NCBI GenBank assembly: GCA_964457775.1
Contig: CAYWEW010000005.1
Location: 5,398 to 69,397, forward strand
Direction of reading: 5' to 3'
DNA length: 64,000 bases
Source of the DNA: an uncultured Candidatus Saccharibacteria bacterium
GTDB taxonomy: Bacteria > Patescibacteriota > Minisyncoccia > Phycocordibacterales > UBA5272
Below, piece after piece: positions 33,728 through 53,942 of this stretch; positions within the stretch are counted from its first letter, which is position 1; each line of letters starts with the position of its first letter. Made by a program: the position numbers and the translations under genes. The notes under the pieces are model-generated. The model had not been told where the DNA came from. It saw nothing but the letters and a program-made list of their open reading frames with translations, and did not search any database.

Positions 33728-33815
33728 GGAGAGGTGGCAGAGCGGTTTAACGCACTACCTTGGAAAGGTAGCAACTGGGTAACCGGTTCGGGGGTTCGAA
33801 TCCCCCCCTCTCCGC
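33728..33815 (+). tRNA. tRNA-Ser (anticodon GGA), no encoded CCA
   Basis: Acceptor GGAGAGG/CCTCTCC, anticodon loop ttGGAaa, long variable arm, T-arm GGGGGTTCGAATCCCCC. Confidence 0.85.
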
Positions 33816-33857
33816 AAAATAAAAAAACTAAAGCTTTTGCCTTAGTTTTTTATTTTA

Positions 33858-34150
33858 CGGAGAGGGAGAAAGTGACCTGCGTCACTTTCATGGGGATTCG
33901 AATAGGGGTCGCGAATCTACTTCGAGCAAAGCGAGGCAGATTTGTGACCGAATCCCTCACCCCTCCGCTTTGAAAATAAATTAACTCACTTTTTAAGTGA
34001 GTTAATTTATTTTGCGGTGAGGGAGAAAACCAACCGCTTGGTTTTCGTGGGGATTCGAATAGGCGAATCAGCAGATTCGGTTATTGGAACTAGCGAAACC
34101 CATTCTGACGAGCTTGCGAGGAGGGGTTTTGTGACCGAATCCCCATACTC
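33858..34150 (+). repeat. Two tandem degenerate tRNA-Ser-like units separated by a perfect palindrome
   Basis: Unit A 33858-33968 and unit B 34015-34150 each start cgg(a/t)gagggagaaa plus a hairpin, contain ggggattcgaatagg ... ttttgtgaccgaatccc and end with ..cccctccg or ..ccccatactc. The palindrome is 33972-34014. Confidence 0.5.
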
Positions 34151-34502
34151 AAACCACACTTCAAGGTATACTAAACAAATGAAATCAATTGTAAAAAATC
34201 CTTACCTGGATGCATTGCTTAAGCTAATGCTCCTGTCCGCCATTATTCATATGTTTGTGTTGGTTATTTATTCTGTGTTGAATGGCAATATTTTCTATTT
34301 AAATTTCTTTAAAATTATAAACATCGATTTGTTTTTTCCTCAAATAGTTAATTTGGATTGTTACGGACTTTATTCATTTGTTATTACTATTTGGTTGTAT
34401 ATATTAATTTATTACATTTCAAATATTAAAAATAAAAAATAAGTTATTTAATATAATATTAGCTATACAACCTCCACAATTTAGTGTATTTTGTATATAG
34501 CT

Positions 34503-37818: not shown

Positions 37819-39843
37819 ATGAAAACTACCACATTACCACTTACACAAAAGGATTTCGATTGGGTGAAAATGACTCCGTCACTGATGAAAAAAACTGCTG
37901 ATGCATATTTAGAACACAAGAAAAAAACTTATAAAGAAATAAAAAATATTCTTCCAGAAAAAAGAACATTTCTAAATACTCTTTACGCACTAGAAAGATG
38001 TGATGATAAGTTCGAATCATTTTTCAGTAAAATGGGACTTCTTTCAGAAGTGTCACCAAAAAAAGAAATACGTGACAAAGCACATGAGATAGCAACAGAA
38101 GTATCTCAGAAATTGGTTGATATTGAATATGACAGGGATTTGTTCATTTCACTTTGTGAATATTATGAAGGGAATTTTCCTGATGAAAAAAAGAATCTGC
38201 GAAAAGAAGACATTAAGTTACTAGAAGAAACTCTTCGTGAATATCGCCGTATGGGTTTTGATTTACCAACTAAAACTCAAAAGAAATTAAAAGATCTGAT
38301 GAAGAAGGTGTCAAAGCTATCAATTGCATTTCGTCAGAATATAAATGATTATCAGGATTATATACTTTGCACACAAGAAGAATTATCTGGTCTTTCAGAG
38401 AGATTTATTTCGACACTCCCAAAACACACTGACGGAAGATATATCGTTTCATTGCAACATCCACACATTGGTCCATTTATGGGGGAGGCGGACAACAGAG
38501 AAAAGAGAAAAGAATTGGCAGAGAAGAATTTGAAGAAAGGAGGAATTAAGAATATAAAAATAATAGAAGAAATTGTGAAGTTGCGACAAGAGATTGCAAA
38601 AATTTTGGGATACAAGCATCATGCTGATTTTAGAACTGAGAATCGTATGGCAAAGAGTGGTAAGAATGCAGAAGATTTTCAAAATTCACTTCTTAAAACT
38701 TTAGCACCACTTGCAAAGAAAGACACAGAAACATTAAGAGTTCATGCGAAAAGTTTAGGAATTAAAAAACTTGAACATTATGATGTTGGTTATGTTGCTA
38801 CACATCTCAAAAAGAAAATGTATGACCTTGATCCAGAAACTGTTAGAGCTTTTTTCCCTCTAGAGCATGTACAAAAGGAATTATTTAAGTTATGTGAGAA
38901 TTTATTTGCAATTTCAATAAAAGAAATTCCATCCAAATTATGGCATAAGGATGTAAAGATGTATCAAGTAAATGATAAGGGTGATAACAAGGGTGCTCTT
39001 ATTGGATATTTTGTGCTAGATCTTTTCCCTCGTGAAGGAAAGTTTGGTCATGCTTGTATGGTGGATGTTGTAGTACCACATGAACAAGGGTATAAAACAG
39101 AAGAGTATGTTGCCCCACTTTCAACGATGATTTGTAATTTTCCAACACCAAATAAACAAAAAGGGAAATTGTTACCTTCACTTTTATCTATCAGTGAAGT
39201 AGAAACGTTGTTCCATGAGTTTGGTCATCTTCTTCATATGACATTATCTCGTGCACGTTTGGAATCACAAGCAGGTGCAAGTGTTGCGTGGGACTTTGTA
39301 GAAACACCATCACAAATCATGGAGAATTGGGTTTGGAATGAAGAAGTTATGAGTAAATTATCTAAGCATTATCAAACTGGTAAAAGAATGCCAAATGCAA
39401 TGATAGAAAGAATTATAAAAGGAAAGACATTTCAAAATGCATACTTCTATACAAGACAATTAGTACAAGGAAAATTAGATTTAGATTTACATACCGGCAA
39501 AGTTAAAGATGCTCGATTGGCATATCGTAAGATGAATAAATTATATTTCAACATTGAACTTCCAGAAAAGGAAACATTATTCCCAGCAGGATTCGGTCAT
39601 CTTGTTGGATATGATGCAGGATATTATTCTTATCTTTGGGCATTAGTATATGCATGTGACGCATTTGAAAGTTTTAAAACAAAAGGGAATAAAAATGTAA
39701 TGACAAATAAAGAAGTTGGAATGAGGTGGAGAAAAGAAGTACTTGAAAAGGGAAGTAGTGAAGACGAAATGAAACTTATTAAAAATTTCTTAGGACGGGC
39801 ACCGAGTCAGAAGGCGTTTTTGAAGGAGGTGATAGGGAAATAG
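37819..39843 (+). CDS. M3-family oligopeptidase (thimet/oligopeptidase A-like)
   Basis: Zinc site FHEFGHLLHM (HExxH) in a roughly 670-aa M3 fold. Confidence 0.85.
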   Translation: MKTTTLPLTQKDFDWVKMTPSLMKKTADAYLEHKKKTYKEIKNILPEKRTFLNTLYALERCDDKFESFFSKMGLLSEVSPKKEIRDKAHEIATEVSQKLVDIEYDRDLFISLCEYYEGNFPDEKKNLRKEDIKLLEETLREYRRMGFDLPTKTQKKLKDLMKKVSKLSIAFRQNINDYQDYILCTQEELSGLSERFISTLPKHTDGRYIVSLQHPHIGPFMGEADNREKRKELAEKNLKKGGIKNIKIIEEIVKLRQEIAKILGYKHHADFRTENRMAKSGKNAEDFQNSLLKTLAPLAKKDTETLRVHAKSLGIKKLEHYDVGYVATHLKKKMYDLDPETVRAFFPLEHVQKELFKLCENLFAISIKEIPSKLWHKDVKMYQVNDKGDNKGALIGYFVLDLFPREGKFGHACMVDVVVPHEQGYKTEEYVAPLSTMICNFPTPNKQKGKLLPSLLSISEVETLFHEFGHLLHMTLSRARLESQAGASVAWDFVETPSQIMENWVWNEEVMSKLSKHYQTGKRMPNAMIERIIKGKTFQNAYFYTRQLVQGKLDLDLHTGKVKDARLAYRKMNKLYFNIELPEKETLFPAGFGHLVGYDAGYYSYLWALVYACDAFESFKTKGNKNVMTNKEVGMRWRKEVLEKGSSEDEMKLIKNFLGRAPSQKAFLKEVIGK

Positions 39844-39887
39844 AAATCACATGTACTAGACATGTGATCTTGAGAAGTATCTGTTTG

Positions 39888-40100
39888 TTATTGTTTTTTT
39901 GGGAACAAGTGGGGGAATTTTCGTAAGGCTTGCATTACTTTGTGAACAGTTGGTGTATCGTACACGCTCACTTCATTTGAATGTTGTGCAATATGACGAA
40001 GTTCTTTAGTACTCGGTTTTCTTACAGAAAGATCATAGATGCTAGTCATGGCAATTCTCCTTAGTTTGTCTATATAGAGAATATATAAAAGTTGAGCCAA
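39888..40100 (-). CDS. Hypothetical small protein
   Basis: ORF only. Confidence 0.3.
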   Translation of the reverse strand: MAQLLYILYIDKLRRIAMTSIYDLSVRKPSTKELRHIAQHSNEVSVYDTPTVHKVMQALRKFPHLFPKKQ

Positions 40101-40168
40101 AGTAAAGTTTTGTAATTTAATTTGATAGTGGTAGGATACCCTTACTGAACGTTCTTTGGTATATTATT

Positions 40169-40339
40169 ATGAATGATGATTTTCTATATATGATTATCGT
40201 TGCAAATTTCTTTTCCTTTGTTCTAGTTTTAATTACTTCAGGTAGCATAAGGAAGTTCTTTGCAAAAGTCTTTGGCTTCATTTTTCTTGTTTTCATTGTA
40301 ACTATTTTAATTGCAGTAAGTAGTGGTCAACTGAAATAA
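40169..40339 (+). CDS. Small (56 aa) membrane protein, not in ORF track
   Basis: MNDDFLYMIIVANFFSFVLVLITSGSIRKFFAKVFGFIFLVFIVTILIAVSSGQLK; -10-like TGGTATATT immediately upstream. Confidence 0.35.
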   Translation: MNDDFLYMIIVANFFSFVLVLITSGSIRKFFAKVFGFIFLVFIVTILIAVSSGQLK

Positions 40340-40369
40340 ACCAAAATTTTATTAAAAAGGAGACTGAAA

Positions 40370-40573
40370 GTGCCAAAAAAAGAATTTGATGGTGTGAGAA
40401 AATCTAGAGAAGAGATGGCAAGATTAAATCAAGATAATTCTGCGAAAAGAGTTACTGAACTTAGAAATCAAATAGCAGAGTTACGGAAAAGTTCAATGAT
40501 TGATAGGTACACTGCACTTCAGAATATTTTGAAGTCAAAGATTGCTGAATTCGAAAGAATTACAGGACAATAA
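40370..40573 (+). CDS. Small coiled-coil protein (GTG start)
   Basis: RBS AAAGGAG 7 nt before GTG. Charged, helical 67-aa product. Confidence 0.4.
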   Translation: MPKKEFDGVRKSREEMARLNQDNSAKRVTELRNQIAELRKSSMIDRYTALQNILKSKIAEFERITGQ

Positions 40574-41043
40574 GTCCCACTTCAATAATGTCTTATCCCT
40601 AAAACGCATATTAATACTTATGTTTGAACATAGGTCACAATGTGCGTTTTTTGTTTTATAAATATTTTTGTGTACAATCAACTGTCCAAAGTTCTACAAA
40701 AAGGTATACTTAATTGCATATGAATACAAAGAAAGATTCTTTTAATAAAGCTTCAGTACTAGTTGCTTTAACATTTGTATTAGGAACAATAACATATGCG
40801 TGGACTGGGGCTCCAGAAGGAACACCACCAGCAAATAACGTAGATGCACCAGTGAACGTAGGTGTTGTAACTCAACTTAAATCAGGGGCTCTTGGTATTG
40901 ATGGATTATTTAGGTCATATGGCAGTGCTATTTTTGATGGAGGTGTTAAGATTTCTACTGATTCAGGTCTAGGTAAAATTCTAACAAGCGATGCAGCAGG
41001 TAATGCTTCTTGGACATCAACTTCTTCTTTGGGGATTAGTGGA
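40565..41043 (+). repeat. Tandem duplication unit 1 (promoter plus 5' coding cassette)
   Basis: About 99% identical to 41415..41893 (period 850 bp). Identity decays over about 30 nt, then the 3' parts are unrelated. Confidence 0.85.
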
Positions 41044-41376
41044 GGAAACGGTGGAGTTTCATCATTTGTAGAAGATTCTTACTCTGATCAAACAACAACA
41101 CGTTTGATTGGTTCCACATACACAAACACATTATTAACACCAAGATTTGTTATAGTCACCGCAAATACAATTCCAGGATCTGTTGTTCGAGCAGCTATAT
41201 TTGTTTATGTGAACAATGTTCGAATACAAGTAACACAAGTTACAGATGCGAATTACAACCAAGGGTGGTTACCATCTACGAATTCTGCTTCATTTATAGT
41301 TCCTCCAGGTGCAACGTATCGAGTCGACAGGTCTGTTAGCAATGTGCGTATAGTTTCATGGTATGAATTAAATTAA
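40714..41376 (+). CDS. Secreted/surface protein, paralog B of the variable family
   Basis: Signal anchor plus the conserved module (AWTGAPEGTPPANNVDAPVNVG...GNASW), then a unique C-terminus. Confidence 0.6.
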   Translation: MHMNTKKDSFNKASVLVALTFVLGTITYAWTGAPEGTPPANNVDAPVNVGVVTQLKSGALGIDGLFRSYGSAIFDGGVKISTDSGLGKILTSDAAGNASWTSTSSLGISGGNGGVSSFVEDSYSDQTTTRLIGSTYTNTLLTPRFVIVTANTIPGSVVRAAIFVYVNNVRIQVTQVTDANYNQGWLPSTNSASFIVPPGATYRVDRSVSNVRIVSWYELN

Positions 41377-41414
41377 TATTTAAAACATTAGTAATTTTTC
41401 CTAATCAAGTTGTA

Positions 41415-41893
41415 GGACAATAATCCCCACTTCAATAATGTCTTATCCCTAAAACGCATATTAATACTTATGTTTGAACATAGGTCACAATGTGCGTTTT
41501 TTGTTTTATAAATATTTTTGTGTACAATCAACTGTCCAAAGTTCTACAAAAAGGTATACTTAATTGCATATGAATACAAAGAAAGATTCTTTTAATAAAG
41601 CTTCAGTACTAGTTGCTTTAACATTTGTATTAGGAACAATAACATATGCGTGGACTGGGGCTCCAGAAGGAACACCACCAGCAAATAACGTAGATGCACC
41701 AGTGAACGTAGGTGTTGTAACTCAACTTAAATCAGGGGCTCTTGGTATTGATGGATTATTTAGGTCATATGGCAGTGCTATTTTTGATGGAGGTGTTAAG
41801 ATTTCTACTGGTTCAGGTCTAGGTAAAATTCTAACAAGCGATGCAGCAGGTAATGCTTCTTGGACGTCCACTTCTTCACTGGGTATTAGTGGA
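41415..41893 (+). repeat. Tandem duplication unit 2
   Basis: See unit 1. Confidence 0.85.
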
Positions 41894-42343
41894 GTTGGTG
41901 ACGTCACATCAATTACGGGTGGCGCCTGTGCGGTTGGGCAAGTAGTTCAGTCAATTAGTGCAACAGGGACTGTAACTTGTGGTGTTGATGCTGGAGGGGG
42001 TACAGGGTTTTCTGGAATACTGAGACCGCTTGAGGGAAAGGAGATAACTTGTAACATAACGCAGGGTGGCGCTGTAGCTGGAAGGGGATATGGGAAAGTT
42101 GAGGGAGGTGTATTTAAAGCGAGAGTTGTATGGGCTAGTATTGCGTATAGACCATATGATTCTGGATGGAAATCTGGTAATTCTATGGGTGTACAAGCAA
42201 ATTTAGTTAGCGCAACATACGGACATGTAAATGTTGGATTAAGTGGAGCAACTTGTACAGGATACACATCTAGTGGCGGGGGTGACAATGCTTCACTTGA
42301 TCAAATCCCAGAGTCAACATCTGTTCCTTGGCCAAATTTTTAA
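41564..42343 (+). CDS. Secreted/surface protein, paralog C of the variable family
   Basis: First about 110 aa essentially identical to paralog B. The C-terminus is Gly/Cys-containing and unique. Confidence 0.6.
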   Translation: MHMNTKKDSFNKASVLVALTFVLGTITYAWTGAPEGTPPANNVDAPVNVGVVTQLKSGALGIDGLFRSYGSAIFDGGVKISTGSGLGKILTSDAAGNASWTSTSSLGISGVGDVTSITGGACAVGQVVQSISATGTVTCGVDAGGGTGFSGILRPLEGKEITCNITQGGAVAGRGYGKVEGGVFKARVVWASIAYRPYDSGWKSGNSMGVQANLVSATYGHVNVGLSGATCTGYTSSGGGDNASLDQIPESTSVPWPNF

Positions 42344-42655
42344 TTATAACTATTTATTTCTAAATTTGATTATCTTTATTAATCCGTAGTTCAACAATAA
42401 AGTAAAGCTATAAAAATTAACGTAGTTGACTCATTGGCATTTTTTGTGCTGTTGTGATATACTTTATTAACTTTAGACATGCGTCTGGTCCCCTTATTTT
42501 TAGGGAAAAACGGCGCTCGTTTTATTAACGACGTAGAGTGAGAGAAGTGGAAAAGTAATCTTTTACATTTCCGAGCCGAGGAGTTGAAAAGGATCAAATG
42601 CCTCAAAGGTTATAATTGGGATCCTTTATTTTTATAGATTTATTATATACATATT

Positions 42656-44443
42656 ATGCAACAGGAAATTCGTAACATCGCCATTATCGCTCACGTAGAC
42701 CATGGTAAGACAACCCTCACAGACGCACTCATGCAACAGTGTGGTGTTGGTGTTGAAGGTCAAACAATGGACTCAAATCCAATGGAAAAAGAGCGTGGAA
42801 TTACAATTACAGCGAAGAATACTTCCGTTCCATATAAAGGTGTAAAAATAAATATTCTAGATACTCCAGGTCACGCTGACTTCGGTTCTGAAGTAGAACG
42901 CGTTTTGCGTGCTATTGATTGTGTGTTACTTGTTGTTGATGCACAAGAAGGTCCAATGCCTCAAACACGTTTCGTACTTAAGAAATCCCTTGAACTTGGC
43001 ATTAAGCCAATCGTCGTTATTAACAAAATTGATAAGCCAGCAGCAGATCCAAAGAAGGTTCACGATGAAGTGTTCGAATTATTCATGGAACTTGGTGCGA
43101 ATGATGAACAACTCGACTTCACTACAGTTTATGCTATTGGACGACAGGGTGTTGCGATGAAAAACTTGGAAGACGAGAAAAAAGATTTAACTCCACTTCT
43201 TGAAGTTATTTTGGAAAAGGTACCAAAGGCAACAGGGGATATAAATAACCCATTTAAGGCGCAAGTATTCAATCTCGCATATGATAATTTCCTTGGACGT
43301 ATGGCTGTTGCTCGTGTATATGACGGAGTCGCAAAAGTTGGTGAAGAAATAATTGTGAAGAAGGCAACTGGTGAAACAAGAAAGGGGAGAATCACTAAGA
43401 TGTTCACATTTAACGGCATCGCAAGAAATGATGCTCAAACTGCCGAAGCGGGAGATATCGTTATGATTGCAGGATTCTCAGATATTTTCATTGGTGAAAC
43501 ATTTATGAAAAATGAAAGTCAAGAACCATTGCCTGCTATTCATATCGATGAACCAACAATCGCTCTTAATTTCCTTGTTAACGATTCACCATTTGCTGGT
43601 AAAGAAGGAAAGTTCGTAACTGGTCGTCAGATTCGTGATCGTCTAGAAAAGGAACTTGAAATAAATGTAGGTCTACGTGTTGATTTTGATACAGAAAAAT
43701 ATTTAGTATATGGTCGTGGAGAATTACACATCGGCGTACTTCTAGAAACAATGCGTCGCGAAGGGTATGAACTTCAGGTGTCACAACCACAAGTTATTTT
43801 CCATGAAAAAGATGGAGTGAAAGAAGAACCATACGAAGAACTTGTTATTGATGTTCCAGTAGAATCTTCCGGTGTAGTGATGGAAAAGCTTGGACGTCGT
43901 AAAGCGATGATTACCGATATGAGTGAGAAGCATGGAGTGAATCGTATTAAGGCAGAGATTCCTACTCGTGGTCTTCTTGGATATCGTGGAGAATTCGTGA
44001 TTGATACTAAAGGTCTTGGTATTTTATCTGCTCGTTATCTTAAGTTCGGTCCATACGCTGGTGAAATTACTCGTCGTTTAGTTGGCTCTATGACTTCAAT
44101 GGCAACAGGAAAGTCTCTTGCATTCTCACTTTGGAATCTTCAAGATAGAGGTGTTATTTATATTCTTCCTACAACAGAAGTTTATGAAGGTATGGTTATT
44201 GGTAATACATCAAAAGGTGAAGAAATGATGGTTAACCCAACTAAAGGAAAGCAACTTTCTAACATGCGTTCATCCGGTGCGGATGAAGCAATCGTACTTG
44301 TTCCTGCATGGGAAATTAGTATTGAACGCGGACTTGAAATCATGAATGCGGATGAGTATCTAGAGGTTACACCTAAGTCAGTGCGTCTACGAAAGCAGTT
44401 GTTAACTGAGAGTGAGAGAGCGAGGTCAGGTAGAAAGTCATAA
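42656..44443 (+). CDS. typA: Translational GTPase TypA/BipA
   Basis: IRNIAIIAHVDHGKTTL, DTPGHADF, NKIDK; EF-G-like domains; length 595 aa. Confidence 0.9.
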   Translation: MQQEIRNIAIIAHVDHGKTTLTDALMQQCGVGVEGQTMDSNPMEKERGITITAKNTSVPYKGVKINILDTPGHADFGSEVERVLRAIDCVLLVVDAQEGPMPQTRFVLKKSLELGIKPIVVINKIDKPAADPKKVHDEVFELFMELGANDEQLDFTTVYAIGRQGVAMKNLEDEKKDLTPLLEVILEKVPKATGDINNPFKAQVFNLAYDNFLGRMAVARVYDGVAKVGEEIIVKKATGETRKGRITKMFTFNGIARNDAQTAEAGDIVMIAGFSDIFIGETFMKNESQEPLPAIHIDEPTIALNFLVNDSPFAGKEGKFVTGRQIRDRLEKELEINVGLRVDFDTEKYLVYGRGELHIGVLLETMRREGYELQVSQPQVIFHEKDGVKEEPYEELVIDVPVESSGVVMEKLGRRKAMITDMSEKHGVNRIKAEIPTRGLLGYRGEFVIDTKGLGILSARYLKFGPYAGEITRRLVGSMTSMATGKSLAFSLWNLQDRGVIYILPTTEVYEGMVIGNTSKGEEMMVNPTKGKQLSNMRSSGADEAIVLVPAWEISIERGLEIMNADEYLEVTPKSVRLRKQLLTESERARSGRKS

Positions 44444-44581
44444 ATTATCCATTTACGTTGTTCGAGCAGTTTGACTGCGAAGATGTCCGAAACTACCAAG
44501 TGTAGGACATGAATCGATTAACTGGAGCAATTTCTGACTTTCGGGCTCATACATACAGTTACATACGAATACAATTCGATT

Positions 44582-45112
44582 ATGAAAAAAAATAAATACA
44601 ATCAAAAACTGAAAGCAAAAGTTCTTGAAGCAAAAAATAATAAATTTTTTTCTGCAATAATTATTATACTGTTTTTCTTTGTTGGTATGTATGGTTACCG
44701 TTGTCTTTCTGAAAAGGTTTGTGAGATAGATGTTTTAGAAAGATTTGTTCGACATGATATAACTATTACTACTCCAAATGGAGCAATGACAGTGGAGGTT
44801 GCTGACACAAAAAGCTCTAGAGAGCTTGGTCTTTCTGGTCGCACTAAAATGAACGATAATGATGGTTTGCTTTTTATTTTTGATCATCCTGGACGGTATG
44901 GATTTTGGATGAAAGATATGTTATTCGCACTTGATATTATTTGGATAAATCAAAATGGCGTTATTGTTGAAATAGAAAGAAATGCAAAACCAGAAGACTA
45001 TCCAAAAACATATATTAATAAATCTGAAGCAAGTTATGTGCTTGAATTGAATGCTGGTATTGCAGAAAAGCAGGGACTTTTTATCGGCTCAAAAGTAAAG
45101 ATTATAGAATAA
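44582..45112 (+). CDS. DUF192-family protein (COG1430)
   Basis: GLSGRTKMNDNDGLLFIFDHPGRYGFWMKDMLFALDIIWIN. Confidence 0.7.
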   Translation: MKKNKYNQKLKAKVLEAKNNKFFSAIIIILFFFVGMYGYRCLSEKVCEIDVLERFVRHDITITTPNGAMTVEVADTKSSRELGLSGRTKMNDNDGLLFIFDHPGRYGFWMKDMLFALDIIWINQNGVIVEIERNAKPEDYPKTYINKSEASYVLELNAGIAEKQGLFIGSKVKIIE

Positions 45113-45250
45113 AAGTCATAAATTGCGAAGCTACTTTGTCGAAAGGCATATTTTTACAGTCGCCGTACTTACACGTACGTCTTCTGTAAAAATATGCCTT
45201 TCTTCGCGTATCTTCATCAATTTCTGACTTTTCTTACCATATCAAAGTCT
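45113..45250 (+). repeat. Intergenic repeat (family C, copy 2)
   Basis: See 27031..27190; also shares caatttctgacttt with 44521-44540. Confidence 0.45.
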
Positions 45251-45384
45251 GGTGATAATAAAGCAATAGATTCCTTTTGGTGCTGTTCACATCTTTATTT
45301 TTTTATACAAAAATTATATTAGTTCATAAAACCTTTTATTATCAATAGTTTTTATCTTAGTTCAATAAAGACTCTCAAAAAAGC

Positions 45385-45412
45385 TTGACAAAAAATATCT
45401 ACATGCTATACT
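45385..45412 (+). promoter_or_regulatory. Near-consensus sigma-70 promoter
   Basis: TTGACA (45385-45390), 16-nt spacer, TATACT (45407-45412). Confidence 0.6.
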
Positions 45413-45418
45413 ATAAGA

Positions 45419-45580
45419 GTTGAGACGAAGTGTTTACTTGAGGTGTCGGTCCGTGGGCCAAACCAAATGGTTTTCATGTAGTAATGAACTCAACCGCATC
45501 GGAATACCAGATGCGAACAGCGCTATGACCCAGATGTCTCCACGGAGGCAAAAGGCGAGCGCTTTTTATTTTGTATATTT
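45419..45580 (+). ncRNA. Candidate small RNA (about 155 nt, identity unassigned)
   Basis: Bounded by the promoter above and the hairpin aaaaggcgagcgcttttt plus T-tract. No ORF. Several internal helices (gttgag/ctcaac, gcatc/gatgc). Confidence 0.4.
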
Positions 45581-45624
45581 GAATTAAAAGAGCGACACCT
45601 TTCGGTGTCGCTCTTTTATCTTTT

Positions 45625-45960
45625 GTTCTATCTATAAGCCGAATTCTGTCCATGTGGTTACCCACATTGTGTAATCATGTATCTGGGCGATATTTTACAA
45701 TACCGCTCTAGCGACACTCTCATATTGCTATGAGCACGGTCTTGCACACACGTAAGGATTTAGCCGTTTCAATTTTATCTTTCGATAAACATATTCCCGA
45801 AGGAACCCTAGTCTTTCGACATTGGCGTCACTGCTCGCACCTCTATGATTGCTCACGACGGGTGTTACCCGCTACGATCACTAATTTAAAAGTAATGTGT
45901 TCGGACTTTCCTCTCTCGGTGGTAGTATTTCAACCACAAAGAGCGATTACCCAGTAGAAC
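45625..45960 (-). ncRNA. rnpB: RNase P RNA (bacterial type A-like, reduced)
   Basis: Minus strand reads GAGGAAAGTCCGAACAC (P4), GGGTAACACCCG, GGTGCGAGCAGTGACGCC and 3' ACAGAATTCGGCTTATAG (E. coli-like ACAGAACCCGGCTTATCG). P1 is GTTCTAC/ATAGAAC. A terminator hairpin 45587-45620 lies downstream. Confidence 0.75.
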
Positions 45961-46053
45961 AAAAAAATAATACAACATATTTTACAAAAAAGCAAGTATA
46001 GATACAATTCCACGTGCTTTTATCTGCATTTTTTGTTAGTATGGAGGGATATT

Positions 46054-47328
46054 ATGATTATTAAGAATTCTTTGCTTTTGGCTATTTTCAGTATTCTTTC
46101 AGTACTTTTGGGTATTGTTCGAGATAGATTACTTGCAACTAATGTTGGAGTTGGTCCGGTGCTAGATATTTATAACGCCGCATTTCGTCTACCTGATTTT
46201 CTATATGCGATGTCACTTGCCTTTGTTACGGCAGGGACAGTCGTACCATTTTTAACAGTAGAAAATAAAAATGGTGTAATAATTGATTCTCGTCACAAGC
46301 TGTCATCCATCTCACTTTTCTTCGCAGGTATGTCTTCACTCGCAGGACTTTTAATTGTAATAACAATACCAATGTATGCGCATATGATAGTGCCAGGATT
46401 TAATGAAGAGCAGTTAGCTATTTTTATTAGTGTTACAAGAATACTTATGATTCAGCCGATACTTATAGGTATAACATCATTAATATCCTGCTTCGCTCAA
46501 TTAAAAAATCATTTTGTTTTATATGGTATTGCACCACTTGGTTATTCTCTTGGTATTATTTTTGGAATACTGGCACTATTTCCTGTATATGGTGTACATG
46601 GATTAATTTACGGTGTGATTATAGGGGCGATTTTATCTCTAGGTATTCAGTCTTATTCATTAAGAGGGGCAAAAATGTTAGAAGTGCTCCCATATTTTTC
46701 TTTCAAACATATTAGAGAAATTTTCAAATTATCCTTTCCACGCACGGGAGTGAATATTCTTACCCAATCTCGAAATATATTTTTTACCGCATTCGCGACC
46801 ACACTCGGCCCAGGTGCGCTATCTAGTTTTTTGTTTGCACAAAGAATTACTGATGCCGTCCAACAAATTATTCAACAAAGTGTAACAACAGCTTCTCTAC
46901 CAGTTCTTTCAAAAGAATTTGTTGAGAATAGATTCAAGGAGTATAAAAAAGTAGTGAAGCGATATGTTCTTATTCTTGGAGCAATTGGATTTTTTGTCTC
47001 AGCGACAATTTATTTTTTGAAAGATATTATCATTAATCTTTTGTATGGAAACACTGACGCTCACTCACTTATCTCTTTCTTTTTAACTGGATTCTTAATT
47101 TCTCTTCCACTTCAAATGATGATAGGATATTTTACAATTAGTCTTTATTCAGCAAAAGACACAAAGAGTGTTTTTTATTCTAATTTTATTTCAACGTTAT
47201 TTGCAGTAGGGACATGTTATTCAACTTCGTATTTAGGTTATATAAGTCTTGTATACGGTGTTGTTGCAATGGCAATTGTTAATTTCTTTTTTATTTTTAT
47301 TTTTTATAGTAAGAAAAAATTAATGTAA
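46054..47328 (+). CDS. murJ: Lipid II flippase MurJ (MviN) family, short form
   Basis: LLGIVRDRLLATNVGVGPVLDIYNAAFRLPDFLY matches the MurJ N-terminal signature; 12 or more TM segments. The track TTG start at 46033 is replaced by ATG 46054, which has a GGAGGG RBS. Confidence 0.7.
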   Translation: MIIKNSLLLAIFSILSVLLGIVRDRLLATNVGVGPVLDIYNAAFRLPDFLYAMSLAFVTAGTVVPFLTVENKNGVIIDSRHKLSSISLFFAGMSSLAGLLIVITIPMYAHMIVPGFNEEQLAIFISVTRILMIQPILIGITSLISCFAQLKNHFVLYGIAPLGYSLGIIFGILALFPVYGVHGLIYGVIIGAILSLGIQSYSLRGAKMLEVLPYFSFKHIREIFKLSFPRTGVNILTQSRNIFFTAFATTLGPGALSSFLFAQRITDAVQQIIQQSVTTASLPVLSKEFVENRFKEYKKVVKRYVLILGAIGFFVSATIYFLKDIIINLLYGNTDAHSLISFFLTGFLISLPLQMMIGYFTISLYSAKDTKSVFYSNFISTLFAVGTCYSTSYLGYISLVYGVVAMAIVNFFFIFIFYSKKKLM

Positions 47329-47332
47329 TTAT

Positions 47333-49135
47333 ATGGAAATTCGTAACTTTTCAATTATCGCGCATATCGACCACGGAAAATCTACTCTTGCAGATAGATT
47401 ACTTGAAGTTACATCAACTGTAGATAAGCGACACATGAAAGAACAAGTGCTCGATAGTATGGAGCTAGAACGTGAACGTGGTATTACAATCAAAATGACT
47501 CCTGTTCGAATGGACTGGAAGGAAAAAGATGGTAAGGAATATATTCTTAACCTTATAGATACACCAGGACACATAGATTTTTCATATGAAGTATCACGCG
47601 CCCTTCAAGCAGTTGAGGGGACACTCCTTCTTGTTGATTCTACACAAGGTGTACAAGCTCAGACACTTACAACACTTGAGATGGCAAAGAACTCTCACTT
47701 AACTATTATTCCTGTTATTACAAAGATAGATAGCCCACTAGCAAGAGCTGATGATGTGAGGGAAGAAATTATGGAGTTACTTAATTGTGAACTTGAAGAT
47801 ATTCTCGCGGTGTCAGGCAAGACTGGTGAAGGGGTAAAAGAATTGATTAGTGAAATTATCAAAAAAGTCCCAGCTCCAAAAAGTGAGTTCGGAGATGCGA
47901 CATTTAATCAGTCACGCGCTCTTATTTTTGATTTTGAATATAGTAATCACATGGGAGTTATTCTTTATGTTCGTGTTCTTGATGGAAATGTAAAAGCTGG
48001 AGACACATTACTATTCACTCAATCGAATCATAAATTTATTATTCGTGAAGTTGGAACATTTTCTCCAGCAAAAAAAGAAGGCAAAGTTATTGGCGCAGGT
48101 GAGATTGGATATATCGTAACTGGCATCAAAGAGCCAGGTATTGCGCGCGTTGGAGATACAGTAACAACAGCGTCACGTCCACTTACTGCTTTCCCTGGAT
48201 ATGCAGAACCTGTGCCGATTGTATTCGCCTCTGTTTATCCTGAGAGTCAGGACGAATTCGATGACTTAAGAAGTTCACTTTTCAAACTTAAACTTTCAGA
48301 CTCATCACTTACTTTTGAAGAAGAATCATCCGGCGCGTTAGGTCGAGGATTCCGTTGTGGTTTCCTTGGTATGCTTCACATGGAAATTATCACAGAAAGA
48401 TTGCGTCGTGAGTTTGATCAAGAGTTGGTAGTAACAACACCATCTATTACTTATGAAGTGACACTCAAGAACGGTGATGTAGAAATGGTTTATACACCGA
48501 TACATTTTCCTGATCATGGACAATATACCTCTGTCCGTGAACCGTGGATTTTATTGACCATTATCACCCCTCATGATTATGTAAGCCCACTTATGCAACT
48601 TTTCCCTCCACATGAGGCTACAGTGTCAGATTTGGCCGATTGGGGGCATGATAGAGTTCGAATTAAGTTACAAATGCCACTTCGTGAGCTCATGCGTAAC
48701 TTTTTCAATGAAGTAAAATCTGCCTCAAGTGGATATGCTTCCATTGTTTATGAACCATTAGAAATGCGACCAGCGGATGTAACGCGTCTTGATGTATATG
48801 TTGCTGAGGAGCGTGTTACTGCTTTTTCTCGTGTGATACCAGAATATCGTGACCGTGAAGAATCTGAAGAGGTTGTTGAGAAGCTGGAAAAAATTCTCCC
48901 GACAGAAATGTTCCGTGTGAAGATACAAGCATATGTAAGAGGACGAATTATCGCATCTCGTTCTATTGCTCCAATGAAAAAGGATGTAACAGGTTATATG
49001 TATGGAGGGGATATTACACGAAAGATGAAGCTGAGAGAGAAGCAAAAGAGAGGAAAAGATAGAATGGAAAGAGAAGGGAAGGTGCATATATCACATGATA
49101 CGTTCCTCCAAATGATGAAACCAGGGGAGAAGTAG
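47333..49135 (+). CDS. lepA: Elongation factor 4 (LepA)
   Basis: IRNFSIIAHIDHGKSTLADRLL, DTPGH, LepA-specific C-terminal domain. Confidence 0.9.
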   Translation: MEIRNFSIIAHIDHGKSTLADRLLEVTSTVDKRHMKEQVLDSMELERERGITIKMTPVRMDWKEKDGKEYILNLIDTPGHIDFSYEVSRALQAVEGTLLLVDSTQGVQAQTLTTLEMAKNSHLTIIPVITKIDSPLARADDVREEIMELLNCELEDILAVSGKTGEGVKELISEIIKKVPAPKSEFGDATFNQSRALIFDFEYSNHMGVILYVRVLDGNVKAGDTLLFTQSNHKFIIREVGTFSPAKKEGKVIGAGEIGYIVTGIKEPGIARVGDTVTTASRPLTAFPGYAEPVPIVFASVYPESQDEFDDLRSSLFKLKLSDSSLTFEEESSGALGRGFRCGFLGMLHMEIITERLRREFDQELVVTTPSITYEVTLKNGDVEMVYTPIHFPDHGQYTSVREPWILLTIITPHDYVSPLMQLFPPHEATVSDLADWGHDRVRIKLQMPLRELMRNFFNEVKSASSGYASIVYEPLEMRPADVTRLDVYVAEERVTAFSRVIPEYRDREESEEVVEKLEKILPTEMFRVKIQAYVRGRIIASRSIAPMKKDVTGYMYGGDITRKMKLREKQKRGKDRMEREGKVHISHDTFLQMMKPGEK

Positions 49136-49143
49136 AAATACAA

Positions 49144-49172
49144 AAGAGCGACCATGGGCCGCTCTTTTTTAT
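49144..49172. terminator. Bidirectional intrinsic terminator
   Basis: agagcgaccatgggccgctctttttt. Confidence 0.65.
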
Positions 49173-49186
49173 TTACCAATAATAAT

Positions 49187-49296
49187 TACTGAATCAGCGC
49201 AACAAGAGAGAATCCAACCATACCAACGATGGCAACGATAGAAACAATTGCCCAAATTTTGTTTATTAACTTTCTGTTTTTTGAAGTGAATATCAT
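49187..49296 (-). CDS. Small (36 aa) hydrophobic peptide, not in ORF track
   Basis: MIFTSKNRKLINKIWAIVSIVAIVGMVGFSLVALIQ; TATAAT-like element upstream on the minus strand; shares the terminator. Confidence 0.3.
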
Positions 49297-49358
49297 ATAT
49301 GTTTTACCTTAATACTCCTAAGTGAGTGTGGTATTATAGACGTAATAATAGCAATTTT

Positions 49359-49748
49359 ATGAAAGAATATCAACATAAGCACATGGTCAGAACTCTTATA
49401 TATTCAAGGGTTACAATTGTAATTTTGTTTTTGTTGATTATATTATTGCTTCGCTCAATTATGGAACTGAATGACAAACGTATAGAAGTTGCAAAGTTAC
49501 GTAATGATTCTTTAGCTGAAAGAAAGATATTAACTGACAAAGTTGCAAAGGCTCAAAAACAGAGTGATGAGATAGCAACACCTAGAGGATTCGAGTCATA
49601 TGTTCGAACAACTTATCCAGTGGTGAAAGAGGGTGAGGGGGTTATTGTAGTTTATGACGGTGATAAAAGTCCAGTGAGTCAAGTTAGACAAGACATGAAT
49701 GTGTGGGAGAGACTTTTGGTTTTATGGCATACCGTGGTTAAAAAATAA
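49359..49748 (+). CDS. Septum-formation initiator family (FtsB/DivIC-like)
   Basis: TM plus coiled-coil plus C-terminal ESYVRTTYPVVKEGEGVIVV (FtsB-like E.iAR..lg.v.pgE). The track GTG start at 49326 overlaps the -10 TGGTATTAT, so ATG 49359 is preferred. Confidence 0.5.
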   Translation: MKEYQHKHMVRTLIYSRVTIVILFLLIILLLRSIMELNDKRIEVAKLRNDSLAERKILTDKVAKAQKQSDEIATPRGFESYVRTTYPVVKEGEGVIVVYDGDKSPVSQVRQDMNVWERLLVLWHTVVKK

Positions 49749-49791
49749 TACAAGTTTGTCTCCTGTTTTTATTCTGTTATACTAATCAAAT

Positions 49792-50037
49792 ATGGAAACA
49801 AAAAAAGTAGAAATTTATAGTACTGTAACCTGTCACTTTTGTCATTTAGCAAAGGATTGGCTCACAGAAAAGGGTGTGCCTTATGTAGATTATAATGTTG
49901 GAGAAAATGTTGAGAAGAGAAAAGAAATGATGGAGATGACAGGGCAACTAGGGGTTCCTGTTATAAAAGTTGGAAATGAAGTTATGATTGGATTCAATCA
50001 GGAACAACTCGCGAAGATATTGGAGATAGCGGATTAA
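49792..50037 (+). CDS. Glutaredoxin-like protein (CHFC active site)
   Basis: VEIYSTVTCHFCHLAKDWL ... GVPVIKVGNEVMIGF. Confidence 0.85.
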   Translation: METKKVEIYSTVTCHFCHLAKDWLTEKGVPYVDYNVGENVEKRKEMMEMTGQLGVPVIKVGNEVMIGFNQEQLAKILEIAD

Positions 50038-50094
50038 ATCATAAAAATATTCTGAAAAACATACAGAAAGCTGTATGTTTTTTTGTTTTGCATT

Positions 50095-50180
50095 GTCGGT
50101 AAGAATTGGCCACGAAACTACTACACTTCGTTCGAAGTAGTTTCGCGACCCCGTTATTCGATTCCCACATAGAAGCCAAG
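50095..50180 (-). repeat. Palindromic repeat module (GGGAATCGAATAAC-GGGGTCGCGAAACTACTTCGAACGAAG...)
   Basis: Reverse complement matches the tRNA-trailer module (ggggattcgaataggggtcgcgaatctacttcgagcaaag). Contains a roughly 36-nt imperfect palindrome. Confidence 0.5.
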
Positions 50181-50333
50181 CAGTTGGCTTTTTCTTGGGT
50201 ATAACAAAAAAAGCTTTGCATATTTTTGTTGTGCACCCTCATGGTCTCGGAATTTTAGTAATTAGGCTCTGTAATGGTTTTTTGAAAGAAATTGGATAGT
50301 TAGATCTAACCCTCTCGGTCGGCTCATTAATTA

Positions 50334-51002
50334 TTATTTAATAAACTTAAAACTAGAAATTACTCTATTCAGAGTAGGGTCATTCGTTACACTAGTATCT
50401 TTGGGAGGAACTAATGATATTAGATACTCAACATTATTTTTTATTGTGCAATATTCCGTAAAACGAATACTAGAATTTGGTAAATCTTGAATTACATCTT
50501 GTTCTGTAAAATTAATACCATTAATAGATGTTTTGGTAAAAGATTTTCCACCCGCCTTAACACGAGAACAGTCCAGATTTTCGCCAGACATTATATTTAT
50601 CACAAATGAACCCTGAGAGTTTTCCTTTGAGTTAATGGGTTGAAATCTTATCGCATTATCATTTGGTCCGTACATATGTTCAGGTAATTTTGTTCCATCA
50701 ACATAATCTATCTGAAATCCATATTGAGGACTTGCATATGTTTTCCATTTTACATCTTGTGATTCAGTACTCTCAGTTATCACTGAATTTATTTGGCTAT
50801 TTTTTGAAGTGGTCAGTGTTGCTTGAGAATTTTGTACTAACGAAACATTATTAGTAACAGCTTGCTGAGTTACGATGGGTGATGTTTTTTTAAACCAGTG
50901 CCATGTTAATGGATTCCACCACGAAGCAAAAACTTGAGTTGTTAATCCAGTGGTAAGAATAAAAACAAAAGAGATTATTTTAATTTTTTTCATATACTCC
51001 AA
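50334..51002 (-). CDS. Secreted hypothetical protein
   Basis: Signal peptide MKKIKIISFVFILTTGLTTQVFA. Confidence 0.5.
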   Translation of the reverse strand: MEYMKKIKIISFVFILTTGLTTQVFASWWNPLTWHWFKKTSPIVTQQAVTNNVSLVQNSQATLTTSKNSQINSVITESTESQDVKWKTYASPQYGFQIDYVDGTKLPEHMYGPNDNAIRFQPINSKENSQGSFVINIMSGENLDCSRVKAGGKSFTKTSINGINFTEQDVIQDLPNSSIRFTEYCTIKNNVEYLISLVPPKDTSVTNDPTLNRVISSFKFIK

Positions 51003-51074
51003 TGATACCTTACTAACTGGTATTAAGAAAGTGATTTATGAGATTTAGGCCTCACGGTCTGTCTCACATGGTTG

Positions 51075-51146
51075 TGCCCTCGGCGGGAATCGAACCTACA
51101 ATAACTCCTTAGGACGGAGCAGTTATATCCATTTAACTACGAGGGC
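51075..51146 (-). tRNA. tRNA-Arg (anticodon CCU)
   Basis: Minus strand GCCCTCG ... anticodon loop gtCCTaa ... AGGTTCGATTCC ... CGAGGGCA. One A-C mismatch in the T-stem. Confidence 0.75.
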
Positions 51147-51217
51147 GTGTACGCACTTAAACGATTCTACCATATTTGTACTTTTGATGACATTAGAAAA
51201 TAGGATATACTTCAAAT

Positions 51218-51541
51218 ATGTTAGACAAACACATGAACAATGAGGAAAAACTGGAAGCAATTTATCAAATGACTTTGGAGAATAATGAGGTGTTGCGTAG
51301 TGTTCGTAGACAGCAATACATGTCGTCATTTTTTAGTGTTATTTATTGGCTTGTAATACTTGGTTCAATCGGAAGTGCGTATTATTTTATAAAACCATTT
51401 ATTCCAGTTATCTCATCTAATGTTGGTAAATTTGAAGAGACGATTGGTCAATTTAATCAAATAAGAAACCAAATGACAGACCCAGGATTACTTCAAGGTA
51501 TGATGAAAAATGTGGGTACTGGCACACAGTCAACGGAGTAG
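51218..51541 (+). CDS. Hypothetical membrane protein
   Basis: One hydrophobic helix (FFSVIYWLVILGSIGSAYYFI). Confidence 0.4.
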   Translation: MLDKHMNNEEKLEAIYQMTLENNEVLRSVRRQQYMSSFFSVIYWLVILGSIGSAYYFIKPFIPVISSNVGKFEETIGQFNQIRNQMTDPGLLQGMMKNVGTGTQSTE

Positions 51542-51612
51542 TTGTTGCATCTTTCGAAGTATTTGTTTTTATGATAGAATCTTAAGGACAGCTATTAGTT
51601 TACAGTTGTTAA

Positions 51613-51632
51613 CATGCTTGGTTAGCTCGAGA
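51613..51632 (+). repeat. Duplicated 5' fragment of tRNA-Phe (acceptor plus D-arm)
   Basis: atgcttggttagctcgag vs the tRNA-Phe 5' end atgcttggatagctcag. Confidence 0.55.
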
Positions 51633-51680
51633 AGCTTGGCTTCGAGGATGTCAAAAGTTAGTAAACTTTTGACCCGGTTG
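51627..51680 (+). repeat. Conserved hairpin element upstream of tRNA (copy b)
   Basis: cgagaagcttggcttcgaggatgtcaaaagttagtaaacttttgacccggttg. Confidence 0.55.
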
Positions 51681-51760
51681 TGAATCAGCAGATTCATGGC
51701 TTGGCCAAAAATAGATTGTTAAAACGTGAATATATAATGTCGGTGGTATAATTAAAATAT

Positions 51761-51833
51761 GCTTGGATAGCTCAGTTGGTAGAGCGCTTCCCTGAAGAGG
51801 AATAGGTCCCCAGTTCGAGCCTGGGTCCAAGCA
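51761..51833 (+). tRNA. tRNA-Phe (anticodon GAA), no encoded CCA
   Basis: GCTTGGATAGCTCAGTTGGTAGAGC ... loop ctGAAga ... CCCAGTTCGAGCCTGGG TCCAAGC A. Extended -10 TGGTATAAT ends 9 nt upstream. Confidence 0.85.
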
Positions 51834-51837
51834 CAAA

Positions 51838-51885
51838 ATACAAAAAGCGATGTCACATGATATCGCTTTTTGTATTTTGTGCTTG
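51838..51885. terminator. Perfect palindrome after tRNA-Phe
   Basis: caaaatacaaaaagcgatgtcacatgatatcgctttttgtattttg. Confidence 0.55.
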
Positions 51886-52061
51886 GACAGCAAGACAGAT
51901 TACTGTCTTGCGGCCGGCTCGAACGAAAAACCGGTCCACGAATTTATTTCAAAAAATAGGGTTCAGTATTTTTTGAAATAAATTTGTCGGTTTTTCTCGG
52001 GGTCGAGGATAGGAGATTTTGTTTGAGTCGTTAGACGAAAAAGAAAATCCCTAGCGGTGAC

Positions 52062-52085
52062 CGAGCCTGGGTCCAAGCATTTTAA
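52062..52085 (+). repeat. Duplicated 3' fragment of tRNA-Phe (T-loop 3' half plus acceptor)
   Basis: ccgagcctgggtccaagca vs the tRNA 3' end ttcgagcctgggtccaagca. Confidence 0.6.
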
Positions 52086-52132
52086 AAAACTCTAAACTGT
52101 GACCAATACTGGCCAAGATAAAATAAAACACC

Positions 52133-52567
52133 CTACATCTGTAGGGTGTCTGAAGATTGTTCAATTCCTGGCTCAACAGGAAGGTCATCTTTGCCAAATA
52201 AATGCATTCTTAGATATCCTGGTCCAGAAGGTGTGCATTTAATGTTTAAAGTAACAGGAATAAAATTGGACTCAAATAATTCATCAAGAGCAGAGTTGAA
52301 TTTCTTAGCTAAGTATTCATCACTTAGCACAAGTGGCACTGGTTTTTTGAAATAAATTTGTATATCGGTTGGTTCACTCAATGAGACAGCTTCAAGTAAA
52401 AATTTTCTCAAGTCTTCTGATGTTATTTCGTAAGCTGGCCTCACGAAAGTAATTTTCAGTGTGACCCCCATAAAAGTATGACCATGACGGAATTTCCATG
52501 AGTCCTGTGGGGTTAATTTACCATCACGTAATTTACGGAACTTTTCTCCAAATGTTTCATCCTTCAT
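52133..52567 (-). CDS. Hypothetical protein
   Basis: ORF only. Confidence 0.4.
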   Translation of the reverse strand: MKDETFGEKFRKLRDGKLTPQDSWKFRHGHTFMGVTLKITFVRPAYEITSEDLRKFLLEAVSLSEPTDIQIYFKKPVPLVLSDEYLAKKFNSALDELFESNFIPVTLNIKCTPSGPGYLRMHLFGKDDLPVEPGIEQSSDTLQM

Positions 52568-52699
52568 TTTGCTTTCCTTTCGTATTTTTGTGCAACTAAT
52601 CGTTATACTACTATATATTATGAAAATAACAACACTTGCATTTTTGATTTAATAAAGTAGTATAAAATTATAAGTAGTTCCTTCATTTTGGAGAAAAAC

Positions 52700-53521: not shown

Positions 53522-53616
53522 TGCTGGTTTTTACTTTCTAGATTTTTGTCACCTTGCATTTTTTGATAACTAAATGTAGTATCTTATTTATCGCTCATTA
53601 TTTGTGGAGATACATC

Positions 53617-53838: not shown

Positions 53839-53942
53839 CGCTCACTTTTTGAAAACCCAATGTATCAAGGTCAATGTATAAGCAGGCAAAGATATTCTTT
53901 TCTAGAAATCAAAAAACCGCAGTAATGCGGTTTTTGTTTTTG

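Follow-up and report, generated by a model that had tools for sequence, protein, structure and literature searches.

Near-identical 5' blocks in a tandem pair of modular, fibre-like genes from a Patescibacteria genome point to recent gene conversion between paralogs

Introduction

How can two neighbouring genes be almost identical in their upstream regions and the first part of their coding sequences, and be unrelated in the remainder? The question is raised by a locus in a 64,000-nt stretch of DNA from an uncultured Candidatus Saccharibacteria bacterium (assembly GCA_964457775.1, contig CAYWEW010000005.1; the whole stretch is referred to below as the window). Two genes, A and B, stand there in tandem, each encoding a signal peptide, a conserved N-terminal module (N-module) and a C-terminal tip of its own (CtA and CtB, respectively). 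An original prediction made from the sequence had described the locus as a perfect tandem duplication of a promoter and 5' cassette fused to two unrelated 3' halves, which would be diversified by recombination or gene conversion as at variable surface-protein loci. The analysis reported here leads us to a different reading, which we consider likely: the genes are tandem paralogs from a family of modular, probably host-binding surface fibres, and a gene conversion of the RecA type took place between them recently.

Results

Two complete genes share a near-identical 5' block

A repeat search and an ungapped comparison at an offset of 850 revealed a direct repeat in two copies, with a period of 850 bp. 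These copies and the genes that contain them are as follows.

40564-41044, + strand: repeat copy 1, the 5' block of unit A, with the tail of the upstream open reading frame (ORF) stop region, the S1 box, a hairpin, the upstream region, the signal peptide, the N-module and the junction
41414-41894, + strand: repeat copy 2, the 5' block of unit B, at a period of 850
40576-41015, + strand: core homogenised (putative gene-conversion) tract, copy 1, with 1 mismatch in 440 nt
41426-41865, + strand: core homogenised tract, copy 2; Logan contig L069 begins exactly at 41426
40720-41376, + strand: gene A, 218 aa; signal peptide 40720-40800, N-module of type N1 40801-41043, CtA 41044-41373
41570-42343, + strand: gene B, 257 aa; signal peptide 41570-41650, N-module of type N1 41651-41893, CtB 41894-42340

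The two blocks differ at eight of 481 nt (40574, 40575, 40961, 41016, 41019, 41028, 41029 and 41034 in copy-1 coordinates), so that the predicted duplication, with its period of 850, is near-perfect rather than perfect. Within the core there is a single mismatch, A at 40961 and G at 41811, which places D at residue 82 of protein A and G at the same residue of protein B; apart from this D82G difference, the proteins are identical over residues 1-108. A near-perfect repeat of 440 nt cannot have arisen by chance in 64 kb. From 41045 onwards, the identity of the two units is down to ca. 25-30%, which is the random level, and the C-terminal parts of A (110 aa) and B (149 aa) are unrelated (BLASTP, E=10), as the original prediction had stated. 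The G+C content of the window is 35%.

Each 850-bp unit begins with the end of a stop region (AGGACAATAA), followed by a conserved box, a hairpin with a U-run, ca. 60 nt of upstream sequence, and the coding part. The duplicated upstream part therefore holds, in addition to the putative promoter already predicted, a terminator-like hairpin.

40601-40650, + strand: terminator-like hairpin followed by a U-run, within repeat copy 1 (z -4.2)
41451-41500, + strand: the same hairpin in repeat copy 2, where it would terminate gene A
40705-40710, + strand: putative -10 box TATACT, 9 nt before the ATG at 40720, with a second copy at 41555-41560; a candidate by sequence only

The hairpin is probably the terminator of the preceding gene, since its structure is retained, with a different inner stem (z -7.6), in a divergent promoter variant (P2) found in the sister strain L001 described below. 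The placement of TATACT, which was not flagged by a consensus promoter scan, suggests that the transcripts may be of the leaderless type; GGTATAAT sits 6-7 nt before the ATG of a paralog at 165 and before that of a gene at 1273.

Both proteins start with a basic n-region and a 17-residue hydrophobic stretch and reach an A-x-A-type site, TYA/WTG. Because the Ala-Trp pair is nearly invariant across the family and the residues at positions -3 and -1 are small, this segment looks like a cleavable Sec signal peptide, which is more likely than the signal anchor originally proposed. An exact search of JGI metagenomes with the 32-nt signal-peptide pattern gave no match.

The repeat recurs in other assemblies

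The source contig is derived from a metagenome, the repeat is longer than short reads, and strain variants with other module combinations exist; all this would favour an assembly error, in which the assembler either placed a single N1 block twice or crossed from one strain variant to another via shared k-mers. Contigs of three other assemblies were found to end at the repeat edges that are expected for the window structure in a de Bruijn graph. Two Logan contigs, L070 (SRR10036063) and L071 (SRR10036065), match the window with 100% identity. Position 40575 is the last copy-specific base, and both contigs run 30 nt beyond it, to 40605, a distance of k-1 at k=31. Another Logan contig, L069, corresponds to window positions 41426-42569 and begins at the first shared base. 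Contig L072, from NCBI metagenome GCA_013558375.1, corresponds to 41684-54443 and starts 127 nt ahead of the copy-B single-nucleotide polymorphism (SNP). This start led to the forecast of a copy-A partner contig beginning at 40834, and a 719-nt contig, L073, was then retrieved via its predicted partial protein. L073 is identical to window positions 40834-41552, starts 127 nt ahead of the copy-A SNP, covers the copy-A base at 40961 and the junction, continues through CtA in full and the spacer, and reaches 127 nt into the second block. The breaks thus fall at predicted graph positions, a contig that was forecast before it was looked up joins the parts of unit A to the second block, and the lone A/G difference distinguishes the two copies. 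We conclude that the repeat is not an assembly artefact, a possibility that the original prediction had allowed for and to which we assign very little probability.

Modules are combined differently in a sister strain

Contig L001 (GCA_020049755.1), from a sister strain, is syntenic with the window from the M3 peptidase gene through typA, and carries three units with a period of 851, two of them A genes and one a B gene. The five units of the window (W) and of the sister strain (L) are composed as follows.

W_A: promoter P1, signal peptide, N1, CtA
W_B: promoter P1, signal peptide, N1, CtB
L_A1: promoter P1, signal peptide, N2, CtA
L_A2: promoter P2, signal peptide, N2, CtA
L_B: promoter P2, signal peptide, N1, CtB

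The two promoter variants are 60% identical, and the two N-module variants have 54% nucleotide identity. The signal-peptide codons, on the other hand, are identical or one base apart in all five units, and CtA is 98.8% identical between the strains at the nucleotide level. L_A1 and L_A2 show no difference over ca. 750 nt, a stretch that begins with the signal peptide and extends to the unit's end. Since promoters, N-modules and tips occur in different combinations in L001, the modules reassort. The 5' edge of the tract lies within 41426-41449 of unit B, and its other end could be placed in gene A.

41000-41015, + strand: recombination joint of gene A, N1/B-like before it and CtA-like after it, in the conserved GNASW codons

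The background synonymous divergence (dS) between the strains, measured on typA and the M3 peptidase gene, is 0.18-0.20, and that of CtA and the gene of the 67-aa upstream ORF (orf67) is 0.025-0.03. Set against this background, one mismatch in 440 nt in the window and ca. 750 identical nt in L001 mean that both lineages were recently homogenised, and that the array is older than their split. Divergence of the flank (window 38692-40800 versus L001 1-2120) is patchy, being 7-20% per 100 nt at 38692-38991, within the M3 gene, and less than 1% over 38992-40800. The pattern indicates recent recombination between strains, in a tract with one end close to the array; patchy flanks of this kind are typical of frequent homologous exchange between strains.

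A partial tandem duplication, old or recent, in which a 5' half was copied and fused to a pre-existing or foreign 3' half, would also yield two genes with a common beginning. The final bases of the upstream ORF (AGGACAATAA) lie inside the unit boundary, as is typical of a duplication junction, and CtB differs in composition from the window (45.6% versus 35% G+C). The multi-unit array, however, is present with the same boundaries and both tips in the sister strain, and so predates a split at a dS of ca. 0.18-0.2; the window blocks nonetheless differ at only one of 440 nt. Moreover, the sister strain has N2 on gene A and P2 on gene B, and the identity seen in the window must therefore be due to later homogenisation. 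We consider duplication by itself an unlikely explanation.

Recent gene conversion between paralogs would account for the locus in the following way. The tandem pair consists of complete paralogous genes, each with a signal peptide, a conserved N-module and an interchangeable C-terminal tip. The 440-480 bp of near-identity would be a tract over which homologous recombination (gene conversion) has recently acted between the units, limited upstream by the conserved box that follows the preceding stop codon and downstream by the GNASW codons. Conversion would postdate the split from the sister strain, where gene A keeps another N-module and gene B another promoter variant, and a separate recent event would have duplicated or homogenised gene A in L001. 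Unequal crossing-over would alter the copy number (two versus three units), and conversion at conserved joints, with crossover points in the conserved signal-peptide and upstream stretches and at the GNASW joint, would re-pair promoter, shaft and tip. One and the same process would in this way both homogenise the 5' block and re-pair promoters, shafts and tips.

No sign of a dedicated variation system at the locus

The constant 5'/variable 3' architecture and the different module combinations of the two strains suggest programmed antigenic or phase variation, in which frequent directed conversion or site-specific recombination would bring alternative 3' cassettes to a constant 5' module; in addition, two direct repeats of 440 bp could drive frequent deletion or amplification. 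Several features of the locus speak against it. Each gene is complete, with an upstream region identical to that of the other; the repeats are direct rather than inverted; and instead of being variants of a single domain, CtA and CtB are unrelated. Searches of the window by tblastn with A and B revealed none of the silent 3' cassettes that had been proposed, and no promoterless CtA or CtB fragments are present in the 64 kb. None of the ten flanking proteins that were scanned is a recombinase, a reverse transcriptase or a phage protein. Finally, both tips are kept at the sister-strain locus, CtA with the nucleotide identity given above and CtB with a ratio of nonsynonymous to synonymous divergence (dN/dS) of 0.03 over residues 109-200 compared with L001. 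What stands of the proposed cassette diversification by recombination or conversion is that modules are reshuffled between strains; a programmed system of the pilE/pilS or vlsE kind is not what the locus resembles, and we regard it as improbable. It had also been foreseen that the proposal would fail if the junction were invariant and both C-termini were conserved orthologs elsewhere: the two tips are indeed orthologous in the sister strain, but the module joined to them varies between strains.

A diversity-generating retroelement (DGR), in which the repeat would be a template/variable-region pair, could be considered because some Patescibacteria literature reports such elements and because the lone mismatch is A versus G. 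A single mismatch, however, makes no adenine-specific pattern; the repeat does not represent a C-terminal variable region but takes in the signal peptide and non-coding DNA upstream of it; the window holds no further long repeat that might act as template; and, as stated, a reverse transcriptase was absent from the ten flanking genes scanned. We give this possibility next to no weight.

CtA is homologous to the tips of phage tail fibres

CtA matches PHROG 26525, "tail fiber protein" (E 2.5e-6), and in tblastn searches it matches annotated tail-fibre genes of Edwardsiella and Pseudomonas phages. An AlphaFold2 (AF2) model of CtA, with a mean predicted local distance difference test score (pLDDT) of 81, is an eight-stranded jelly roll. 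When this model was compared by Foldseek with BFVD, phage tail fibres were found (E ca. 1e-7, TM ca. 0.7), while comparison with the PDB yielded only generic jelly rolls, such as the HA head, TNF/C1q and carbohydrate-binding modules (TM ca. 0.5). The domain is present in 67 viral contigs, and in 15 of the 15 that were inspected it ends one residue before the stop codon of an ORF without a signal peptide. We conclude that CtA is, by sequence and predicted fold, a homolog of the tip domain that stands at the extreme C-terminus of phage tail fibres. Together with the N-module, which is specific to cells (see below), this homology makes gene A a chimera with a phage receptor-binding tip.

The tip raises the question of whether A and B are true tail-fibre genes of a phage-derived particle, i.e., a remnant of a prophage, a tailocin or an extracellular contractile injection system (eCIS); the Peptidase_S74, GP38 or Collar-like domains of other family members would agree with this. 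Such an origin is very improbable in our view. The proteins have N-terminal signal peptides, of which the inspected viral tail-fibre ORFs have none, and the N-module is without a relative in 2.9 million viral contigs. The genes are isolated, each unit having its own terminator-like hairpin and upstream region, and no virion or baseplate genes were detected among the flanking genes scanned. The locus is bordered by genes for an M3 peptidase and a 67-aa ORF on one side and by typA/bipA on the other, and the more distant flanking genes are also of the housekeeping type (an ABC transporter, a SpoU methylase, LepA and MurJ). The 67-aa ORF (40370-40573) encodes a charged, coiled-coil-like protein without a transmembrane (TM) segment.

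CtB has a conserved core and a variable end

The relatives found for CtB are its ortholog in the sister strain and a protein of another organism, P0014, where the domain follows a different N-terminal part; none were found in phage records, viral contigs or PHROGs. Two parts of CtB behave differently.

41927-42064, + strand: 46-aa CtB core (CAVGQVVQSISATGTVTCG.D.GGGTGFSGILRPLEGKEITCN), differing from P0014 at 29 of 138 nt and at 5 of 46 aa
42170-42340, + strand: hypervariable CtB end, residues 201-257 (57 residues), with dN 0.26 and dS 0.41 compared with L001

The ratio of nucleotide to amino acid differences in the core points to strong purifying selection. The higher G+C content of CtB (41894-42340) is close to that of contig L003, which encodes its only distant relative (45.7% G+C), and may reflect horizontal origin or be a mere effect of Gly-rich composition.

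The N-module defines a family in Patescibacteria

The mature N-module starts with WTG.P..PP.NNV.AP.NVG...Q.K.G, which is followed by a shaft unit that ends in GK.LTSDA.GNASW. A profile of the module matched 7,744 cluster representatives (50% identity) at E<=1e-3 among 1.84 billion, 1,407 of them at E<=1e-10, and the match was N-terminal in ca. 133 of the 150 best representatives. The second half of the profile is repeated 4-11 times in 17 long, fibre-like proteins, which identifies it as a shaft repeat; two of these 17 also match phage depolymerase or Peptidase_G2 domains. The fibre- or adhesin-like character that had been ascribed to the proteins is thus upheld, both by the shaft repeats and by the tail-fibre tip of gene A.

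A genome scan with one genome per species yielded 65 N-module loci, often several per genome, with 2-5 copies in several genomes. All those records among the 65 that carry a phylum name are Patescibacteria, the remainder being unclassified; the named groups are Paceibacterota/Parcubacteria, Kaiser-, Nomura-, Vogel-, Taylor- and Campbellbacteria, Magasanikiibacteriota, and metagenome-assembled genomes labelled Saccharibacteria. The family motif (WTGP..PP.GNV.AP.N.G...Q.K.G) is always located 21-33 residues from the N-terminus and immediately follows a hydrophobic signal segment with Ala as its last residue, and A, B and the paralog at 165-1124 all carry it in that position. Residues A22, W23, T24, P26, P31, N34, V35, A37, P38, N40, Q46 and K48 are invariant or nearly so in the family alignment. 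Lengths of family proteins range from 93 to 1049 aa, and a Pfam scan of 53 members gave Peptidase_S74 five times, Shufflon_N and Gly_rich_2 twice each, and Collagen, C1q, GP38, fn3, Xlink and Hint once each.

When A, B and the third paralog were compared with Pfam and NCBIfam, no match was obtained, and these libraries hold no model for the N-module; sequence searches of the PDB gave no match either. A description of the family was not found in the literature searched, and exact look-ups of proteins P0001, P0005 and P0010 returned no record. A protein-guided metagenome scan gave only distant matches to the shaft motif and no strain-level variants. Two further copies are located at the beginning of the window.

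165-1124, + strand: third paralog, 319 aa; N-module 74% identical to N1 in amino acids and ca. 85% in nucleotides, with an unrelated, Cys-rich C-terminus ending in FLCIKN
1129-1215, + strand: truncated family fragment, signal-peptide codons only (28 codons), with 77% nucleotide identity to 165-235

The fragment, 4 nt after the third paralog, is a remnant of a further family copy. A fourth similar protein, P0005 (315 aa), has no match in the window and is presumably encoded outside of it. Other Patescibacteria genomes, too, contain pairs of paralogs in which similarity (69-98% identity) is confined to the 5' 110-340 nt; compared with these pairs, the near-perfect identity at the window locus is the unusual, recent part.

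Neighbours of family genes and other features of the window

Analysis of neighbour-gene enrichment in 40 loci revealed partial associations only, and no universal partner. The third paralog and the fragment that follows it are succeeded, at 1273-2790, by a gene whose product, an exported protein of 505 aa, contains GYAWSD.IGW(I/V)SF repeats and has no match in Pfam or NCBIfam. Proteins with GYAWSD repeats adjoin N-module genes in seven other Patescibacteria loci (L005, L009, L012, L013, L016, L019 and L029), which suggests a recurrent genomic association with the family. At ca. 10 unrelated Patescibacteria loci (L006, L014, L031, L035, L041, L042, L044, L058, L063 and L065), a same-strand gene immediately upstream of the family gene encodes a single-pass membrane protein of ca. 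100-150 aa with tandem (P)LTxEEKxKILxxL-like repeats; at six others, the upstream gene encodes a protein of ca. 160-210 aa with one TM segment, ending in ..EF.ASEIRIQ. These small upstream TM proteins might be partners or anchors of the fibre proteins.

Compared with L001, the typA upstream region of the window contains a 104-nt insertion (42527-42630), which has TTTATT on both sides and is unique in the window. The inserted sequence includes a hairpin, AAAGGATC...GATCCTTT, with a T-run after it; the end of Logan contig L069, at 42569, falls within the insertion.

A bacterial class A RNase P RNA is encoded at 45619-45962 on the - strand (107 bits, gathering score 100), and the window also carries four tRNA genes; these are ordinary housekeeping RNAs that fit a chromosomal context. 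Just downstream of tRNA-Ser (33728-33815) there are two 58-nt direct repeats, 33849-33906 and 34006-34063, which are 79% identical and contain a T-arm-like GGGGATTCGAA; the second overlaps the start of an ORF at 34017-34442. They could be tRNA remnants or undetected tRNA-like genes. Another 58-nt element, present at 13181-13238 and 51623-51680 (88% identical), lies ca. 50-80 nt upstream of tRNA-Thr (13287) and tRNA-Phe (51761), and is probably a shared tRNA promoter or leader.

Discussion

The anatomy of the locus, its mosaic relation to the sister strain, the phage homology of CtA, the breadth of the N-module family and the reality of the repeat were observed directly, while RecA-type conversion as the process, as well as its direction, is what we infer. 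Several points weigh against this reading. The identity shared at the 3' joint is just 14-17 nt, which is short for RecA-dependent exchange. An L001-like array could be turned into the window state only by two or more conversion events or through an unsampled intermediate, and the direction is not fixed with one outgroup; the comparison between strains is a comparison with one sister strain. Copy number and junctions were judged from consensus contigs, and contig L069 passes the 3' fork without a break, which the graph does not fully explain. CtB has only the two relatives named above among 5.8 billion proteins (word-indexed search), and the AF2 model of full-length B, built from a 10-sequence alignment, has a pLDDT of 41 and is unusable. 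That A and B would be Sec-exported, fibre-like surface proteins, the tips of which may bind receptors on host or other cell surfaces, is likewise read from sequence.

The locus shares traits with several known systems. Phage receptor-binding proteins (P2 gpH-like fibres, T4 gp37/gp38-type fibres) also have a conserved N-terminal part and unrelated, swapped tips, with crossovers at conserved joints, and CtA is homologous to their C-terminal tip; the proteins described here differ from phage tail fibres in their Sec-type signal peptide, their housekeeping neighbourhood and an N-module absent from viral contigs. Neisseria pilE/pilS and Borrelia vlsE/vls are systems of antigenic variation by gene conversion with silent cassettes. 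As in these, recombination of paralogs with conserved flanks changes the displayed protein; unlike in these, there is no asymmetry of expression site and silent cassette, and the unrelated tips are stably conserved in the sister strain. Polymorphic toxin, contact-dependent inhibition (CDI) and Rhs loci are built of a constant N-terminal region and orphan C-terminal modules. Constant N-region, variable C-modules and tandem partial copies with recombinable homology are the common ground; here, however, no toxin or immunity genes were recognised, the genes are full and have their own upstream regions, and the proteins are of 218-257 aa.

In a shufflon, the Rci recombinase inverts segments that encode alternative PilV C-termini. 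A constant N-region with alternative C-termini is common to both, and two distant family members match Pfam Shufflon_N, but there is no visible prepilin-type G/F..E motif; a shufflon was rejected as an explanation, the locus having only direct repeats and no recombinase among the ten flanking genes scanned.

The closest parallel to conversion between paralogs is the concerted evolution of tandem copies, in which, as here, copies within a genome are closer than orthologs, copy number changes (two versus three) and tracts have sharp ends. The difference is that here the tract comprises only the regulatory region and the 5' module, and homogenisation coincides with module shuffling. The locus is a clean example of concerted evolution in a metagenome-derived genome, and its comparison between strains gives direct evidence for the re-pairing of shaft, tip and promoter through recombination. 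The evolutionary process is an ordinary one; the family itself, and the capture of a phage tip on an exported, cell-specific module, appear to be undescribed in the libraries and literature searched. Judged by its sequence features, gene A would be a clear example of a secreted cellular protein that has recruited its receptor-binding domain from phages.

Abstracts on cultivated Patescibacteria report an epibiotic lifestyle, and the role of a surface fibre is proposed on the basis of this lifestyle, the signal peptide, the shaft repeats and the tail-fibre-type tips. According to the same kind of source, host recognition and attachment by Patescibacteria are largely unknown, the abstracts dealing mainly with type IV pili in Saccharibacteria. 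A wider view, which we put forward tentatively and hold to be possible rather than probable, is that Sec-exported fibres occur throughout the Patescibacteria, with a docking module absent from viruses and swappable tips, some captured from phages, and that tandem arrays re-pair these parts and so set host attachment. If true, the modular build of phage receptor-binding proteins would have its counterpart in cells. The locus thus offers a concrete candidate for host recognition by ultrasmall, epibiotic Patescibacteria.

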